DNA from: Paracoccaceae bacterium
GTDB taxonomy: Bacteria; Pseudomonadota; Alphaproteobacteria; Rhodobacterales; Rhodobacteraceae
Assembly (NCBI GenBank): GCA_009773055.1
Contig: WOUW01000010.1
Location: 2,448 to 66,447, forward strand
Direction of reading: 5' to 3'
DNA length: 64,000 nt
The notes below the pieces were generated by a model that had not been told where the DNA came from, did no database searches, and saw nothing but the letters and a program-made list of their open reading frames with translations. Shown here in pieces: positions 1 to 32,829 of this stretch (position 1 is the first letter of the stretch; each line of letters begins with the position of its first letter). Position numbers and translations under genes: made by a program.

Positions 1-1299
1 ACGTGGGAGGCCTGTTCGGGCACCTCACGCTTCAAACCAGAAGGCGCGCAAGAGGACCTTGTTCGTGGGATCAAGGAGCTGACGGCGAAACCGGTCGTCG
101 GTGTCGGTCGGTTCACCAGCGCGGATGCCATGGTCCGCCAGATCAGATCCGGCGTGCTCGACTTCATCGGGGCCGCCCGACCCTCCATCGCCGACCCGTT
201 TCTGCCAAAGAAGATCGAGGAAGGCCGGTATGAGGACATCCGCGAATGCATCGGTTGCAACATCTGCGTGTCCGGTGACATGACCGGCAGCATCAGCCGC
301 TGCACCCAGAACACCGCCTTCATGGAGGAATGGCGCAAGGGCTGGCATCCCGACCGAGCCCGGCCCAAGGGGGTATCCGAAAGCGTCCTTATCGTCGGTG
401 CCGGTCCCGCCGGCCTTGAGGCGGCCCTGCAGGCTGCCAAACGCGGTTACAGGGTCACGCTGGCCGAAGCCACCAAGAGCCTCGGCGGCCGCGTGGCCAA
501 GGAACGCCTCCTCCCCGGCCTCTCCGCCTGGGGTCGCGTCGCCGACTACCGAACCGGCCAACTTGGCCCCATGCCGAACGTCGCGATCTACCGCGACAGC
601 CCCCTCACGCCCGAGGACGTCCTTGCCATGGGTGTCGACCATGTCGCCATCGCCACTGGAGCCACGTGGCGCCGCGATGCCGTCGCCCGCCTGCACCTCC
701 ACCCGATTCCAACCGATCCGGCATTGCCCCTTTTCACGCCCGACGACCTGATGTCCGGGCACTGCCCCGAGGGCCAGACTGTCGCCATCTACGACGACGA
801 CCATTTCTACATGGGCTCGGTCCTGGCCGAGCTTCTGGTCCTTAGGGGCAACCGCGTCCACTTTGTCACCCCCGCTGTGAAGGTTGCCGAATGGACCGAC
901 AACACTCTGGAACAGGGAACGATCATGAGACGTCTCCTGGAGCTTGGGGTCGAGGTTCAGCTGAACAAAGCCCCGGAAGCCGTTCTGAAAAGCGAGATCA
1001 TCCTTGGTTGCACCTGGACTGGCCGCCAATCCGCGCTGTCTTGCGACGCGCTGGTCTACGTTACATCCAGAACACCGAACGACGACCTTTTTCAGGCCTC
1101 GAAAACGCTCGACTGGCAGGCCGTCGGTATCAGGTCCCTGCACTTGATTGGCGACGCCGCCGCGCCCGGTCCGATCGCCTGGGCCACTTATGCTGGCCGC
1201 GCTTGGGCCGAGGGTCTCGACATGCCCGACCGGGCTGATGCACTGTCGTTCCGCCGCGAGATCGCCGCGCTGGAGCCCGGCCAATCTTTGCTTCCCTGA
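1..1299 (+). CDS. Histamine/trimethylamine dehydrogenase-family flavoprotein (FMN, [4Fe-4S], ADP), 5'-truncated at the window edge
   Basis: Frame 1 is open from base 1 (TWEACSGTSRFKPEG...). It contains GAARPSIADPFLP, the [4Fe-4S] motif CIGCNIC...CTQN, EEWRKGWHP and GAGPAG. CVSGDMT resembles histamine dehydrogenases rather than TMADH. Confidence 0.88.
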   Translation, partial: TWEACSGTSRFKPEGAQEDLVRGIKELTAKPVVGVGRFTSADAMVRQIRSGVLDFIGAARPSIADPFLPKKIEEGRYEDIRECIGCNICVSGDMTGSISRCTQNTAFMEEWRKGWHPDRARPKGVSESVLIVGAGPAGLEAALQAAKRGYRVTLAEATKSLGGRVAKERLLPGLSAWGRVADYRTGQLGPMPNVAIYRDSPLTPEDVLAMGVDHVAIATGATWRRDAVARLHLHPIPTDPALPLFTPDDLMSGHCPEGQTVAIYDDDHFYMGSVLAELLVLRGNRVHFVTPAVKVAEWTDNTLEQGTIMRRLLELGVEVQLNKAPEAVLKSEIILGCTWTGRQSALSCDALVYVTSRTPNDDLFQASKTLDWQAVGIRSLHLIGDAAAPGPIAWATYAGRAWAEGLDMPDRADALSFRREIAALEPGQSLLP

Positions 1300-27872: not shown

Positions 27873-27947
27873 GTGCTGCCGACCGGGTGCGGCTTGACGC
27901 GGGTTTGGCCTCGCCCCTACTGTCCGGCCAAACCACAAGGCCGCCCG

Positions 27948-29972
27948 ATGCCCCGCGATCCGCGTTACGACATCCTGTTCGAGCCTGTCCGCATCGGCCC
28001 GGTCACCGCCCCAAACCGCTTTTATCAGACCCCGCACGCCACCGGCTTTGGCTGGCAGCGTCCGCAGTCGGGTGCGGCGTTGCGCGGCGTGAAGGCCGAG
28101 GGCGGTTGGGGCGTCGTGTGCACCGAATACTGCTCGATCCACCCGTCGTCGGACGACAGCCCCTATGCGTTTCTGACGCTATGGGACGACGACGATATCG
28201 CGCCGCTGGCCCTGACGGCAGAGGCGATCCATGCCCATGGGTCGCTGGCCGGGATCGAGCTTTGGCATGGGGGATCGCATGCGTCGAACCGGATGACGCG
28301 GGTGCCGGGGATCGCGCCGGATGTGCAGCCCGCGCTTTACCATCTGCCCGCGACGGCGCGGGCAATGGACCTGAGCGATATCAAGGCTTTCCGGGGCTGG
28401 CAGCGGGATGCGGCCAAGCGCGCAAAGCGGGCCGGCTTCGACATTGTCTATGTCTATGCCGGGCACGATTACTTGCCGTTCCAGTTCCTCTCGCGCCGAT
28501 CGAACCAGCGAGGCGATGCCTATGGCGGGTCCTTGGAGAACCGGGTCCGCCTTCTGCGAGAGATGATCGAGGATACGAAGGAGGCGGTCGGCGACACCTG
28601 CGCCGTGGCGGTGCGGCTGGCCGTGGACGAGTTGCATGGGCCGGAGGGGATCACGTCCGAGGGCGAGGGCCGCGAGATCATCGAGATGCTGGCGGAACTG
28701 CCCGACCTTTGGGATGTGAACGTTGCGGGGGCGTTGGGAAATGACTCGCGGTCAGCGCGGTTTTCGGCCGAGGGGTTTCAGGAGGAGAATATCGCCTTCG
28801 TGAAATCCTTGACCTCGAAGCCGGTGGTGTCGGTCGGCCGCTTCACCTCGCCCGACCGGATGGTCAGCCAGATCAGGCGCGGGGTGCAGGACTTCATCGG
28901 GGCGGCGCGGCCGTCGATTGCCGATCCGTTCCTTCCCGCCAAGATCCGCGACGGGCGCGAGGACGAGATCCGCGAATGCATCGGCTGCAACATCTGCCGG
29001 GCGGCGAACAACGAAGGTGTGGGCCTGCGCTGCACGCAGAACCCGACGATGGGCGAGGAATGGCGGCGTGGCTGGCATCCCGAGCGGATCGCGGTCTACC
29101 CGAAGCGCCAAAAGGCGCTGGTGATCGGCGGCGGCCCGGCGGGCTTGGAGGCGGCGCTGACGCTGGGACGGCGGGGCTTGGAGGTGTCGTTGGCCGAGGC
29201 TGGGGATACCTTCGGCGGGCGTCTTCTGCGCGAGGCGACGCTGCCGGGGCTGTCGACCTGGCTAAGGGTGCGGGACTGGCGGATCACCATGATCGACAAG
29301 CTGCCGAACGTCGAGTTGTTCCCGGCCAGCCGGATGGGCACCGAGGACATCGCGGAGTTCGGGGCGGATCATGTGGTCTTGGCCACGGGGTCGCAGTGGC
29401 GGCGGGACGTCGTGGGCGTCTACGCGATCCGGCCCCTGACCTTGCCAGACGCCCTGACCCCCGATGACGTCTTTGCCGGCGCAAGGATCGTCGGCCCGGT
29501 CGTGATCTATGACGACGAACACTATTTCATGGGCGGGGCGCTGGCCGAAAGATTGTCGGGTCAGGGCCATACTGTCCACTATGTGACCACGGCCGCTGTG
29601 GCGTCGTCCTGGACCGTGATGACCAATGAGCAAGACTTTCTGCAGGCCCGGCTGATCGAGGCAGGGGTGGTGATTCACCCCCTGAAAGCCTTGAAAGCGA
29701 AGGGAAATGGCGAAATGCGGCTGACCTGCGTCTACACCGGGCGCGAAGAGGCCCTGCCCTGCGGCACGCTGGTCCTGTGCACCGGGCGGCTGCCAGAGAC
29801 CGACCTTTGGGAAGCGCTCCAGACCAAAGGCATCCAGGCCACCCGCATCGGGGATTGTCTGGCACCGTCATCTATCGCCGATGCGGTCCATTCTGCCCAC
29901 CGTTATGCCCGACTTCTGGGCGAGCCCGACTTGCCCCCGCGCCGCGAACGTGCGTCGCACGGGCCCGCCTGA
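27948..29972 (+). CDS. TMADH/HADH-family amine dehydrogenase paralog lacking the flavinylated Cys
   Basis: RDPRYDILFEP, KAEGGW, YVYAGH, CIGCNIC...C and GGGPAG. Confidence 0.88.
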   Translation: MPRDPRYDILFEPVRIGPVTAPNRFYQTPHATGFGWQRPQSGAALRGVKAEGGWGVVCTEYCSIHPSSDDSPYAFLTLWDDDDIAPLALTAEAIHAHGSLAGIELWHGGSHASNRMTRVPGIAPDVQPALYHLPATARAMDLSDIKAFRGWQRDAAKRAKRAGFDIVYVYAGHDYLPFQFLSRRSNQRGDAYGGSLENRVRLLREMIEDTKEAVGDTCAVAVRLAVDELHGPEGITSEGEGREIIEMLAELPDLWDVNVAGALGNDSRSARFSAEGFQEENIAFVKSLTSKPVVSVGRFTSPDRMVSQIRRGVQDFIGAARPSIADPFLPAKIRDGREDEIRECIGCNICRAANNEGVGLRCTQNPTMGEEWRRGWHPERIAVYPKRQKALVIGGGPAGLEAALTLGRRGLEVSLAEAGDTFGGRLLREATLPGLSTWLRVRDWRITMIDKLPNVELFPASRMGTEDIAEFGADHVVLATGSQWRRDVVGVYAIRPLTLPDALTPDDVFAGARIVGPVVIYDDEHYFMGGALAERLSGQGHTVHYVTTAAVASSWTVMTNEQDFLQARLIEAGVVIHPLKALKAKGNGEMRLTCVYTGREEALPCGTLVLCTGRLPETDLWEALQTKGIQATRIGDCLAPSSIADAVHSAHRYARLLGEPDLPPRRERASHGPA

Positions 29973-31480
29973 TGCGTCAGCGCCGTCCACCCCGCAGCGT
30001 GAACGCCATTCCGCAACGCCCCTTTGGTCAGGTGACCCGGACCTATGATCCGATCCGGGTGATCAGCGAGGATCACGTCGAGGCGATCCATCAGGCGGCC
30101 TTGACCTTGCTTGCAACGCAAGGGATGCGGGTCTTGAACGCGCGCGCTCTGGACCACTTTCGCCGCGCCGGCGCACGAGTGGATGGGCAGATGGTCTACC
30201 CCGATTCCGGCCTGATCGAACAGTTGCTGGCGTCCGTCCCCCAGACCTTCACCATCGCCGCGCGGAACCGTGCCAAGGACCTGCGCTTCGGCGGAAATGA
30301 CATGGTGTTCTCGTCGGTCGGCGGCCCGGCCTATGTGATGGACCTCGACCGGGGCCGCCGCGATGGGACCTTGCAGGACATGCAGGACTTCCTCCGCCTG
30401 TGCCAAAGCCTGAACGTGATCCAGCAGGAATCCGGCGGGCCGCTGGAGCCGTTGGACCTGCCCGCAGCCACCCGGCATCTGGACCTCTACCTGTCGCAAT
30501 GCACGCTTCTCGACAAGAGCTGGAACCTGAACGCACTCGGGACCGAGCGGACGATGGACGGCATCCACATGGCGGCGCTTGCGATGGGCTGGTCGCTGGA
30601 TGACCTTGCGCGCCAACCGATGATGATGGGGGTGATCAACACCAACTCGCCGCGGCAGTTGGACGACCCGATGGGACAGGGGCTGATTGCGCTGGCCGAG
30701 CATGGGCAGGTCGCCATCGTGACGCCCTTCACGCTGGCAGGGGCGATGGCCCCGGTGAGTCTTGCCGGGGCGCTGGTCTTGCAGCATGCAGAAGCGATGT
30801 TCGGGATCGCGCTGACCCAGATCGTGCGGCCCGGGGTGCCGGCGATGTATGGCGGGTTTACCTCGAACGTCGACATGAAGACCGGCGCGCCGGCCTTCGG
30901 CACGCCGGAATATGCCAAGGCGGCGCAGGCCTCGGGGCAGCTTGCCCGCCGGATCGGGGTGCCATTCCGGTCGTCGAATACCACGGCGGCCAATGCCCTT
31001 GATGCGCAGGCGGCTTACGAATCCATGATGTCGCTGTGGGGCTGCCTGATGGGCGGCGCGCATCTGGTGATCCATGGCGCAGGCTGGATGCATGGCGGGC
31101 TGACGGCGAGTTTTGAAAAGCTGATCCTCGATGCCGAGCTTCTGGGGATGATGCAGGCCTATTTCAGCCCGATCGCCGTCAACGATGACGCGCTGTCGCT
31201 GGCAGCCATCGCCGAGGCAGGCGTTGGCGGGCATTTCTTCGGCACCGCGCAGACGATGGCGATGTATGAAACCGCCTTTCATCCGCCCATGCTGTCGAAT
31301 TGGGACAACTTCCCGACCTGGCTGGCGCGGGGGTCGGAAGAGGCCCCTGCCCGCGCCAACCGGATCTGGAAAGAGCTGCTTTCAAGCTATGAAGAGCCGC
31401 AGCTTGACCCCGGCATTCGCGCGGCACTGAAGGAATTCGTCGCCCGCCGCAAGGCGGAAGGCGGCGCCCCCAACAACTGA
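29972..31480 (+). CDS. Trimethylamine methyltransferase (MttB) superfamily protein, non-pyrrolysine
   Basis: INTNSP, TPFTLAGAMAPV, FTSNVDMK.GAPAFGTPE, DAQAAYES and GGHFFG; no in-frame TAG. Confidence 0.9.
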   Translation: MRQRRPPRSVNAIPQRPFGQVTRTYDPIRVISEDHVEAIHQAALTLLATQGMRVLNARALDHFRRAGARVDGQMVYPDSGLIEQLLASVPQTFTIAARNRAKDLRFGGNDMVFSSVGGPAYVMDLDRGRRDGTLQDMQDFLRLCQSLNVIQQESGGPLEPLDLPAATRHLDLYLSQCTLLDKSWNLNALGTERTMDGIHMAALAMGWSLDDLARQPMMMGVINTNSPRQLDDPMGQGLIALAEHGQVAIVTPFTLAGAMAPVSLAGALVLQHAEAMFGIALTQIVRPGVPAMYGGFTSNVDMKTGAPAFGTPEYAKAAQASGQLARRIGVPFRSSNTTAANALDAQAAYESMMSLWGCLMGGAHLVIHGAGWMHGGLTASFEKLILDAELLGMMQAYFSPIAVNDDALSLAAIAEAGVGGHFFGTAQTMAMYETAFHPPMLSNWDNFPTWLARGSEEAPARANRIWKELLSSYEEPQLDPGIRAALKEFVARRKAEGGAPNN

Positions 31481-31483
31481 CCG

Positions 31484-32362
31484 TCAGTCCGCCCCGATGG
31501 ACCGCGCCAGCTTGCCCAGGGTCTGCAGGCCCAGCGCTTCGGCACCGAAGCCCTTCGCGTCCTGGTATTCTTTTGCGGTCGCCATCACCATGCCAAGGGT
31601 AACACGGGTTGCCCCGCCTTCCTCGGAGAACGAGGCCCAGGCGTCCGCGTGCTTTGGCCCGTTCTCGCCCCACAAAAGCGCATAGTCGAGCCGGACCTCG
31701 GGGATCACCTGGCCATAGCGATGATGGTTCGGGAACACCGTGCCGTCCGGCGCAATCATGTCGAAGACCCACTCGCCGCCCTGTCGCAGGTCGATGCGGC
31801 TGGTCTTGCAGGAAAACCCGTCCGGTCCCCACCATTTCGGCAGGGTTTCCGGGTTCATCCAGGCACCCCAGACCACTGACACCGGGGCCTTGATCACACG
31901 TTGCAGGATCATCGTGCGCTCCGCCACCCCGGTCAGGTTGGCAATGCCCGCATCAAACCCCTGAGTATAGCCCGCCGCCATGTCCTGCGCCTGCGAGGAC
32001 AGCTGGACCGTTACCGCCACCTTCGACGCCTTTGCGTCTCCGCTGAACTGTGCGGTCACCAGCGCCACGGAATCGATCGCACCCTTGCTGGACACCACCT
32101 CGTAATTCACGGTCACGCTGTCGGGCACAAGTTGCAGCCAACCCGCCTCGACATGGACATCCGGCGTGCCGGGAAAGCGGCAGATCGAGACTTCCCGGCC
32201 GCCGATGCGGGCGTCGGATTCAAGGAATTCGACGGTCACGCCCGGGGCGGGCGGGGCCCAGACCGCACGGGCCGCGGGCGCGATCCAGGCCTGATAGAGC
32301 GTGCCGATCGGGGCTGCGACGCTCCTCTCGAACGAAAGCGTGGCAAAGGGTGCGGCGGTCAT
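31484..32362 (-). CDS. Tandem SRPBCC (AHSA1-like) domain protein
   Basis: Two repeats with W..P....W motifs and D.R.GG; start MTAAPF overlaps the upstream stop. Confidence 0.8.
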   Translation of the reverse strand: MTAAPFATLSFERSVAAPIGTLYQAWIAPAARAVWAPPAPGVTVEFLESDARIGGREVSICRFPGTPDVHVEAGWLQLVPDSVTVNYEVVSSKGAIDSVALVTAQFSGDAKASKVAVTVQLSSQAQDMAAGYTQGFDAGIANLTGVAERTMILQRVIKAPVSVVWGAWMNPETLPKWWGPDGFSCKTSRIDLRQGGEWVFDMIAPDGTVFPNHHRYGQVIPEVRLDYALLWGENGPKHADAWASFSEEGGATRVTLGMVMATAKEYQDAKGFGAEALGLQTLGKLARSIGAD

Positions 32363-32829
32363 TTCTTCAACCCTTGGGCATATTCTTCCAGCTGGGTCAC
32401 GACCGTGCCCCACCCGTCGTAAAAGCCCATGTCCTTGTGCGCCTTGGCGGTGTCGGCGTTGCGATGCCGGGCGACGGCGGTGTATTTCGTCCGCCCGTTG
32501 CCGATATCCTCGAAGGTCAGGATCGCGGTCATGAACGGCTCGGGCGCCGGCTTCCAGCCTTCGGTGTAGGCATCGGTGAACACGAGCTTTTCGTTCGGCA
32601 CCACCTCCAGGTAGACACCGTTGTTCTGCATCTCGTTGCCCTCGACATTGAAGGTCGTGTTGCACTTGCCACCGACGCGGACGTCCAGCTCGCAAGCCGT
32701 CACCTTGTGGGGCTTCGGGACGAACCAGTGGACGAGATGTTCGGGCGTCGTCCAGCATGTGTAAAGGATCTCGCGCGGAGCGTTCACTTCGCGGGTGAGT
32801 ACGAGATCGAGTTCCGGATCAAGGTCCAT
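32359..32829 (-). CDS. SRPBCC (AHSA1-like) protein
   Basis: WTTPEHL..WF.PKP, DVRVGG, G.YLEVVP and H..MGF.DGW. Confidence 0.88.
   Translation of the reverse strand: MDLDPELDLVLTREVNAPREILYTCWTTPEHLVHWFVPKPHKVTACELDVRVGGKCNTTFNVEGNEMQNNGVYLEVVPNEKLVFTDAYTEGWKPAPEPFMTAILTFEDIGNGRTKYTAVARHRNADTAKAHKDMGFYDGWGTVVTQLEEYAQGLKK

Follow-up and report, generated by a model that had tools for sequence, protein, structure and literature searches.

The stretch of DNA analysed here, called the window throughout, comprises 64,000 nucleotides of contig WOUW01000010.1 (positions 2,448 to 66,447, forward strand) of the Paracoccaceae bacterium assembly GCA_009773055.1. Its source (contig C52) belongs to a 2.26-Mb metagenome-assembled genome (MAG), 59% complete, of a freshwater Rhodobacter-type bacterium, and the nearest relatives of the window are found in Tabrizicola and Rhodobacter-like Paracoccaceae. 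We focus on two adjacent genes, one for an amine dehydrogenase of the trimethylamine dehydrogenase (TMADH)/histamine dehydrogenase (HADH) family and one for a methyltransferase of the MttB superfamily, referred to below as the pair (Table 1). The TGA stop of the dehydrogenase gene (29970-29972) and the ATG start of mttB (29972-29974) have one base in common. In the window the pair stands as a two-gene core, with no further conserved gene around it.

Table 1. Features of the pair and its upstream spacer (positions are those of the window)
Feature	Coordinates	Strand	Basis
TMADH/HADH-family dehydrogenase binding flavin mononucleotide (FMN), [4Fe-4S] and ADP, 674 amino acids	27948..29972	+	translation, Pfam, PDB phmmer
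GCC codon, Ala31, at the flavinylation-cysteine position (TMADH Cys30, HADH Cys35)	28038..28040	+	phmmer alignment
TGATG junction, dehydrogenase stop overlapping the mttB start	29970..29974	+	sequence
Non-pyrrolysine MttB-superfamily methyltransferase, 502 amino acids	29972..31480	+	PF06253, uninterrupted open reading frame
75-nt spacer between photolyase stop and dehydrogenase start, possible promoter/ribosome-binding-site region	27873..27947	+	sequence

The dehydrogenase, with the N-terminus MPRDPRYDILFEP (translation of the open reading frame (ORF) 27948-29972), has the three-domain architecture of the TMADH/HADH family, an old yellow enzyme (OYE)-like FMN barrel plus two nucleotide-binding-like domains. 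Pfam assigns Oxidored_FMN to residues 10-340 (228 bits) and Pyr_redox_2 to residues 390-626, together with an OYE-like second domain. In phmmer searches of PDB the protein scored 650 bits against HADH of Nocardioides simplex (3k30), 648 against 6l6j, 647 against HADH of Rhizobium sp. 4-9 (6de6) and 531 against TMADH of Methylophilus methylotrophus (1djn/2tmd); it is roughly equidistant from the first three and farther from TMADH, with which it has the architecture in common. The alignments to 3k30, 6de6 and 6l6j run end to end, and at ~50% identity to these three solved structures we took sequence alignment to fix the sites discussed below.

Codon 31 of the dehydrogenase encodes Ala, inside the motif NRFYQTPHATG, opposite the Cys of both HADHs (NRFYQVPHC in 3k30 and 6de6) and of TMADH (1djn). 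Since Ala takes the place of the flavinylation Cys, the FMN is very probably bound non-covalently. Other parts of the catalytic apparatus are retained: the Fe-S cysteines C344/C347/C350/C362 (TMADH C345, C348, C351 and C364), which are invariant in 25 aligned orthologues; the triad of Tyr170-x-x-His173 (YAGH) and Asp266, equivalent to Tyr169, His172 and Asp267 of TMADH; Arg223 (TMADH Arg222, near the flavin); and Tyr175. The aromatic bowl has been rebuilt. Solely Tyr61 (motif TEY; Tyr60 of TMADH) survives, as in TMADH and unlike HADH, with Trp264 replaced by Leu263 (GALGND) and Trp355 by Asn354 (CRAANN); the Trp264/Leu263 equivalence is identical in all three structure alignments, though a gap of 1-2 residues lies nearby. 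The HADH pocket residues Gln/Glu65, Trp267 and Asp358 are absent as well, the dehydrogenase having Tyr, Leu and Asn there. We summarize the pocket as Tyr61/His173/Leu263/Asn354 or, with Ala31, as ‘AYHLN’. Within the lineage of this signature the triad, Arg223 and Tyr61 are strictly conserved.

These results uphold the preliminary description of the locus at the level of residues: the Ala codon, the retained YAGH, TEY and Fe-S cysteines, the replaced Trp264 and Trp355, the TGATG overlap and the lack of a pyrrolysine codon in mttB were all found as described. A sequencing error at the Ala codon was ruled out by the conservation of Ala in all close orthologues (28 of 28 genome_contigs loci of at least 61% identity with the AYHLN signature, and likewise G111). 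Canonical TMADH or HADH was ruled out by pocket residues and phylogeny. Judged by pocket positions that fit neither TMADH nor HADH, and in keeping with what had been proposed, the dehydrogenase is a distinct, remodelled subfamily, and its predicted substrate pocket (Tyr61, Leu263, Asn354) suits neither trimethylamine nor histamine.

The partner of the dehydrogenase matches PF06253 with 623 bits over residues 4-499 of 503 (in the version read from 29969, which has one extra N-terminal residue). Its ORF has no internal stop and therefore no pyrrolysine codon. The nearest solved structures are 4yyc (346 bits) and MtgB (2qne/9yce, 315 bits). Three paralogues are encoded in the same MAG, two of them 37-41% identical to the MttB of the pair and the third 26% identical. 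The last, a very divergent fourth member of the family in this genome, lies on contig C62 (L137:770-9108) and is co-directional with genes for a phosphoenolpyruvate (PEP)-mutase-family protein, two dimethylglycine dehydrogenase (DMGDH)/sarcosine-dehydrogenase-type proteins (DAO plus GCV_T domains; 812 and 826 amino acids) and a Zn-dependent alcohol dehydrogenase. As predicted from its gene products, this cluster is a second case of MttB joined to amine dehydrogenases in the same genome.

We examined the conservation of the pairing from both sides. The dehydrogenase-side scan covered one genome per prokaryote species and returned 80 loci, with relatives 55-90% identical to the dehydrogenase of the window. 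At 22 genome_contigs loci of at least 61% identity an MttB gene lies directly downstream; there are six others without a confirmed MttB, five of which (L017, L022, L024, L032 and L033) have flanks too short to judge. The hosts of the AYHLN lineage are Tabrizicola, Cypionkella and other Paracoccaceae, Hyphomicrobiales (Aestuariivirga, Pseudaminobacter and Taklimakanibacter) and unclassified alpha- and gammaproteobacterial MAGs. Near-identical Paracoccaceae-type pairs were also seen on contigs labelled as Variovorax paradoxus (L013) and Paracoccus haematequi (L014) MAGs, which are probably mis-binned. HADH-type homologues (C-E/Q-H-W-D) never precede MttB in the loci examined and sit in separate clades. 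The MttB-side scan covered 151 Paracoccaceae genomes, one per genus. Some MttB paralogue was present in 137 of them, and in eight, that of the window included, a paralogue at least 63% identical to the MttB of the pair was found; a TMADH-family gene lies immediately upstream of it in all eight. Among the 22 next-best MttB paralogues (44-53% identity), none has a close TMADH-family gene (at least 44% identity) within 1.5 kb, and at one of these loci, L124, a distant homologue (33% identical) is all that lies nearby. The junction itself is TGATG or ATGA (4-nt overlap) in about 28 of 34 related loci; most of the others have a gap of 3-17 nt, and two (L077 and L131) a gap of ~65 nt. The conservation that had been anticipated for the pairing is thereby borne out: the dehydrogenase is stably and tightly coupled to one MttB clade, in Alphaproteobacteria and a few gammaproteobacterial MAGs.

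MttB-linked dehydrogenases fall into three lineages. The AYHLN lineage, to which the dehydrogenase of the window belongs (L005-L032 except L030, L126), combines Ala at the Cys30 position with Trp264→Leu and Trp355→Asn. The CYHVN lineage (L030, L036, L038 and L077, from Rhodospirillales and Dongiaceae MAGs) keeps the Cys and has Trp264→Val and Trp355→Asn. In the AAM-W lineage (L127-L132, from six Paracoccaceae genera) Ala at Cys30 is accompanied by Tyr60→Ala/Ile, His172→Met, Glu59→Gly and a 5-residue insertion, with Trp355 kept, so that its motifs read TGA instead of TEY and YAGM instead of YAGH; an example is L127:11175-13250, on the Fuscovulum ytuae plasmid NZ_CP124537. AAM-W dehydrogenases are 46-52% identical to that of the window, and their MttB partners 64-68% identical to its MttB.

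In the MttB tree the AYHLN and AAM-W partners fall into a single clade (local support 100%), within which those of AAM-W are nested among AYHLN partners from Cypionkella and Aestuariivirga. In the dehydrogenase tree each of the three lineages is well supported (100, 97 and 100). FastTree unites them with a support of 88; in the IQ-TREE topology (LG+G4), rooted on TMADH-like outgroups, the long AAM-W branch is pulled to the base, and a single MttB-linked dehydrogenase clade is not rejected by the approximately unbiased (AU) test (ΔlnL 4.1, p = 0.43). From the comparison of the three lineages and the trees we conclude that the MttB link predates the Cys-to-Ala change and extends more widely, and that Ala arose once or twice within MttB-linked enzymes. 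Ala and the pairing had been proposed as parts of one module. The pairing holds; the two features are nonetheless separable, because the CYHVN sister lineage, which keeps the Cys, has MttB as its partner too.

Nor is the loss of the flavinylation Cys confined to this locus; it is less unusual than had been thought. In a survey of the Cys site in 74 family cluster representatives aligning from the N-terminus, 44 had Cys, 13 Ala and 7 Gly; the 50%-identity representative library was used for this survey only, and the TMADH/HADH group is represented there by few clusters. The C30A mutant of TMADH (PDB 1djq, likewise among the phmmer matches) is reported to remain active. Among solved structures, 6l6j has Ala at the flavinylation site (PHATAMG); we take this entry, whose PDB title is silent on the point, to be the published 6-hydroxypseudooxynicotine dehydrogenase of Pseudomonas geniculata. 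For that enzyme, a review of nicotine catabolism (PMC7688666) reports a crystal structure with non-covalent, planar FMN, and for the Agrobacterium enzyme the same review gives FMN, [4Fe-4S] and ADP as cofactors and reduction of electron-transferring flavoprotein (ETF). Together with the active mutant and the Ala in 13 of 74 representatives, 6l6j and the reported structure make a functional enzyme with non-covalent FMN plausible at our locus.

The dehydrogenase may thus be placed among its known relatives. HADH (~50% identity) and TMADH have the same three-domain FMN/[4Fe-4S]/ADP architecture and share with it the Fe-S cysteines, the triad and Arg222. From both, the dehydrogenase of the window differs by Ala for Cys, by Trp264→Leu, by Asn in place of Trp355/Asp358 and by its link to MttB. 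The 6-hydroxypseudooxynicotine dehydrogenase (Pno/HisD-type), also a TMADH-family member and scoring 648 bits, has Ala at the flavinylation site as here, but its pocket residues differ, 6l6j reading LEETMI, AWDS and CTAEV at the three sites, and this enzyme is encoded in a nicotine-degradation cluster rather than in an MttB pair. Demethylases of the DgcA/StcD type (for dimethylglycine and N-methylproline), which act on tertiary and secondary N-methyl amines derived from betaines, are also FMN-FeS proteins, with an OYE-like FMN domain and a nucleotide-binding domain. Within the family their branch lies much farther away.

No corrinoid protein gene adjoins the pair in the window (its neighbours are a photolyase and an AHSA1-domain gene), and none is linked to it in any locus examined. 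The preliminary description had noted this absence, which stands. In aerobic Ruegeria pomeroyi the MttB-family protein MtgB works with MtgC, an unlinked corrinoid protein, and with MtgD, which binds pterin; MtgC and MtgD double as a split methionine synthase, and demethylation of glycine betaine was shown genetically (Mausz et al. PNAS 2025, PMC12478193). Up to seven pfam06253 paralogues occur per genome in aerobic Rhodobacterales (PMC12478193). Because these bacteria share unlinked MtgC/MtgD among MttB paralogues, the absence of an adjacent corrinoid gene is unremarkable, and fits, on this analogy, the shared, unlinked system of aerobes. We searched five carriers of the pair (T. flagellatus, Rhodobacter sp. 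SY28-1, Cypionkella psychrotolerans, Pseudaminobacter soli and Taklimakanibacter albus) for the corresponding proteins. All five encode a stand-alone corrinoid protein of ~240-285 amino acids away from the pair, which in T. flagellatus has B12-binding_2 and B12-binding domains and is followed by a neighbouring DUF1638 gene, and all five have a second, divergent pterin-binding ORF (~330 amino acids, 88-103 bits) that is not FolP.

The pair resembles MtgBCD of R. pomeroyi in consisting, on the methyltransferase side, of a non-pyrrolysine pfam06253 protein in aerobic Rhodobacterales with no linked corrinoid gene. It differs in that its MttB forms a separate paralogue clade, 37-41% identical to two paralogues of its own genome that are MtgB-like, and in that a TMADH-family dehydrogenase is present in the operon; the glycine betaine system has none. 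The anaerobic proteins MtgB, MtcB, MtpB and MtyB (Desulfitobacterium, Eubacterium limosum) belong to the same superfamily and act on quaternary amines, but their systems have dedicated, linked genes for a corrinoid protein and a tetrahydrofolate (THF) methyltransferase, and no linked flavoprotein that oxidises the tertiary-amine product.

In a third of the paired loci a BetI-type repressor, an Opp-type ABC importer and a CocE/NonD hydrolase accompany the pair. A CocE/NonD hydrolase orthologue was found at 12 of 33 paired loci and at none of 52 unpaired ones, a BetI-type TetR at 16 of 33 and 2 of 52, and a family-5 binding protein at 7 of 33 and 0 of 52; these counts are limited by flank length, and related genomes are not independent samples. 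Five of the six AAM-W loci (all except L129) have an operon with the hydrolase, an Opp-type transporter and BetI-type TetR, its co-directional genes encoding the dehydrogenase, MttB, the CocE/NonD (S15) hydrolase, two Opp-type permeases, ATPases, the family-5 binding protein and the TetR. The RefSeq (PGAP) annotation of the F. ytuae plasmid gives exactly these products, and that of a Mesorhizobium plasmid gives the same gene set, convergently placed; the cluster, plasmid-borne in Fuscovulum and Mesorhizobium, is presumably mobile. In the AYHLN lineage, Cypionkella, Aestuariivirga and others have the hydrolase and transporter genes upstream of the pair in divergent orientation, and a Tabrizicola MAG (L005) has hydrolase and TetR there. 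Searches of solved structures with the hydrolase and the binding protein gave no substrate clue: the nearest relative of the former is cocaine esterase (~100 bits), and the latter has distant matches to peptide or opine binding proteins. A homologue of the S15 hydrolase elsewhere in the MAG of the window is 42-43% identical and has a different context, and was not counted as part of the module.

Two further gene associations were seen. In two Paracoccaceae MAGs a BKACE enzyme and a GNAT acetyltransferase are encoded beside the BetI-type TetR of the pair (L009:1799-3252 and L010:1410-2881); BKACE enzymes include the dehydrocarnitine cleavage enzyme. In Taklimakanibacter albus a DUF3419 protein and a small S-adenosylmethionine (SAM) methyltransferase are encoded just upstream of the pair (L026:1747-3788; near-identical in L031). 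We take such a combination to correspond to BtaA/BtaB, the makers of the betaine lipid DGTS (diacylglyceryltrimethylhomoserine); in this one lineage the BtaA/BtaB-like neighbours give a weak hint at trimethylhomoserine-type substrates.

We consider it somewhat better than an even chance that the two genes are the conserved core of a catabolic module, aerobic and dependent on cobalamin, for a quaternary (betaine-type) N-methyl compound. By its predicted functions, the pair probably removes methyl groups from a betaine-like compound in two steps. In the first, the MttB-family enzyme would take one methyl group off the quaternary nitrogen and load it onto the corrinoid protein MtgC in the Co(I) state. 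MtgC, whose gene would lie at another site in the genome, would be common to this pathway and the split methionine synthase, and MtgD would hand the methyl group on to tetrahydrofolate. In the second, the TMADH-family flavoprotein would oxidise the resulting tertiary amine at a C-N bond, with N-demethylation or dealkylation to an aldehyde as the outcome and with the [4Fe-4S] cluster relaying electrons from FMN to ETF. Because a lone pair on nitrogen is required by flavin amine dehydrogenases, a quaternary nitrogen is closed to them; demethylation by MttB yields a tertiary amine that a flavoprotein can oxidise, and we therefore read the two proteins as catalysing consecutive steps. The stop/start overlap would couple the synthesis of the two proteins and keep their amounts roughly equimolar. 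The hydrolase, the Opp/Dpp-type importer and the BetI-type repressor that accompany the pair in relatives suggest import of the natural substrate in conjugated form, as a betaine ester or amide. An extension of this reading, which we put forward tentatively and hold rather doubtful as a whole, makes the pair the core of an undescribed aerobic conjugated-betaine pathway, with Opp import, release of the betaine by CocE/NonD, demethylation by a dedicated MttB via the shared B12 carrier and oxidation by a new TMADH lineage using non-covalent FMN. The conjugate would contain a trimethylammonium compound in ester or amide linkage; possible sources are betaine lipids, N-trimethylated peptides and esters of the acyl-carnitine or choline type. 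The two core proteins might, on this reading, form a physical complex.

Several observations weigh against a module of two consecutive steps. At the sixth locus without a confirmed MttB, L019 (Aestuariivirga), none lies downstream despite ample flank, the sole such exception in the AYHLN lineage. His172 and Tyr60 are lost in the plasmid lineage though its MttB stays similar, which makes for a poor fit to a picture of one pocket and one substrate. The hydrolase, transporter and repressor are not beside the pair in the window and in most Tabrizicola-group relatives, so their link to this copy is indirect. In the MAG of the window, 59% complete, neither an MtgC-type corrinoid protein nor a second pterin-binding protein turned up; B12-binding matches there are methylmalonyl-CoA mutase and an AerR-like regulator, and the sole pterin-binding protein is FolP, beside folB and glmM. 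Given the incompleteness of the MAG, this last absence says little. The order of MttB before the dehydrogenase on one N-methylated compound is chemically sensible and comes from chemical reasoning, and the literature searched held no biochemical, genetic or expression work on the pair or the cluster.

One alternative is a branched pathway, in which the conjugate is split by the CocE/NonD hydrolase or another enzyme, MttB demethylates the betaine moiety and the dehydrogenase oxidises the other amine moiety, so that both act on the same compound in non-consecutive steps. The recurrence of hydrolase and Opp-type importer beside the pair speaks for it, as does the strong divergence of the pocket between lineages (AYHLN versus AAM-W) while MttB stays 64-68% identical. 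Yet many genomes, that of the window included, have the pair without the hydrolase, the stop/start overlap joins exactly the dehydrogenase and mttB, and the passage from quaternary to tertiary to oxidised amine is the simpler chemistry; we therefore regard branching as unlikely, if worth keeping in view. It is also improbable, to our judgement, that the MttB homologue is corrinoid-independent and serves as a substrate-binding or channelling subunit on the dehydrogenase or transfers the methyl group directly to another acceptor. Translational coupling, which favours equimolar synthesis, and the lack of a corrinoid gene linked to the pair or found in the MAG of the window would agree with such a role, but all characterised non-pyrrolysine MttB members use a corrinoid protein, and pair-carrying relatives encode MtgC-like and MtgD-like proteins elsewhere, the genome of the window being incomplete.

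Could the flavoprotein be a redox helper, for example a donor or acceptor of electrons for reductive reactivation of the corrinoid, and not an amine dehydrogenase? FMN, [4Fe-4S] and a nucleotide-binding domain would suit such a function, and the plasmid lineage lacks His172, Tyr60 and Glu59. This is nevertheless very improbable, given the strict conservation of the Tyr-His-Asp triad in the lineage of the window, along with that of Arg223 and of Tyr61 on the substrate side, and the presence of DUF1638, a proposed reactivation module, adjoining MtgC in relatives (checked in T. flagellatus). Finally, we find it scarcely credible that the dehydrogenase is just one of the ordinary enzymes for trimethylamine, dimethylamine or histamine, beside an unrelated MttB gene, as the automatic annotation of homologues by the Joint Genome Institute (JGI; dimethylamine/trimethylamine dehydrogenase) and the ~50% identity to histamine dehydrogenases might be taken to imply. 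Two of the three bowl residues are replaced; HADH Gln/Glu65, Trp267, Asp358 and the flavinylation Cys are absent; HADH-type homologues form separate clades and are never beside MttB; and the pairing is conserved from both sides.

The surroundings of the pair in the window vary among its relatives. Upstream, on the same strand, lies a photolyase gene, and downstream, on the opposite strand, an AHSA1-domain gene, with malate synthase G next after it; the photolyase and the AHSA1-like gene were ruled out as partners in the module, since they are kept as neighbours in the Tabrizicola group alone. The 75-nt spacer showed no consensus promoter, and the promoter/terminator scan was otherwise uninformative. 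The AHSA1/SRPBCC domain is confined to the last 130 residues of a 424-residue ORF (31484-32758, minus strand), whose homologue in L008 has 296 residues, so its start may be over-called or an unannotated N-terminal domain may be present. In L008, the closest relative (a Tabrizicola MAG, 90% identity), a BetI-type TetR gene of ~590 bp (L008:9541-10122) lies between mttB and the AHSA1-like gene; this insertion is absent from the window (31480-31483), from T. flagellatus and from Rhodobacter sp. SY28-1. A second TMADH-family gene (16-1278, plus strand), partial at the window start, encodes a protein ~48% identical to the dehydrogenase over residues 267-673. Its part inside the window begins past the Cys30 and Trp264 sites, and no MttB gene is linked to it; it had been noted separately as a histamine-dehydrogenase operon.

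The pair adds no new mechanism and no new class; it is a good, testable lead on an unassigned MttB paralogue and on the natural loss of covalent flavinylation. On the side of the flavoprotein, three natural variants of the TMADH active site occur in one gene context (Cys kept, Cys→Ala, and Cys→Ala with His172→Met), a set relevant to the long-standing question of what purpose the 6-S-cysteinyl-FMN link serves. On the side of the methyltransferase, aerobic Alphaproteobacteria have up to seven MttB paralogues, with glycine betaine alone assigned (PMC12478193), and the pair provides a testable handle on another. Should its substrate turn out to be an ordinary betaine, the known demethylation pathways would be extended in a routine way; identification of the substrate would add a route of methylated-nitrogen cycling, and a demand for B12, in lakes and soils.

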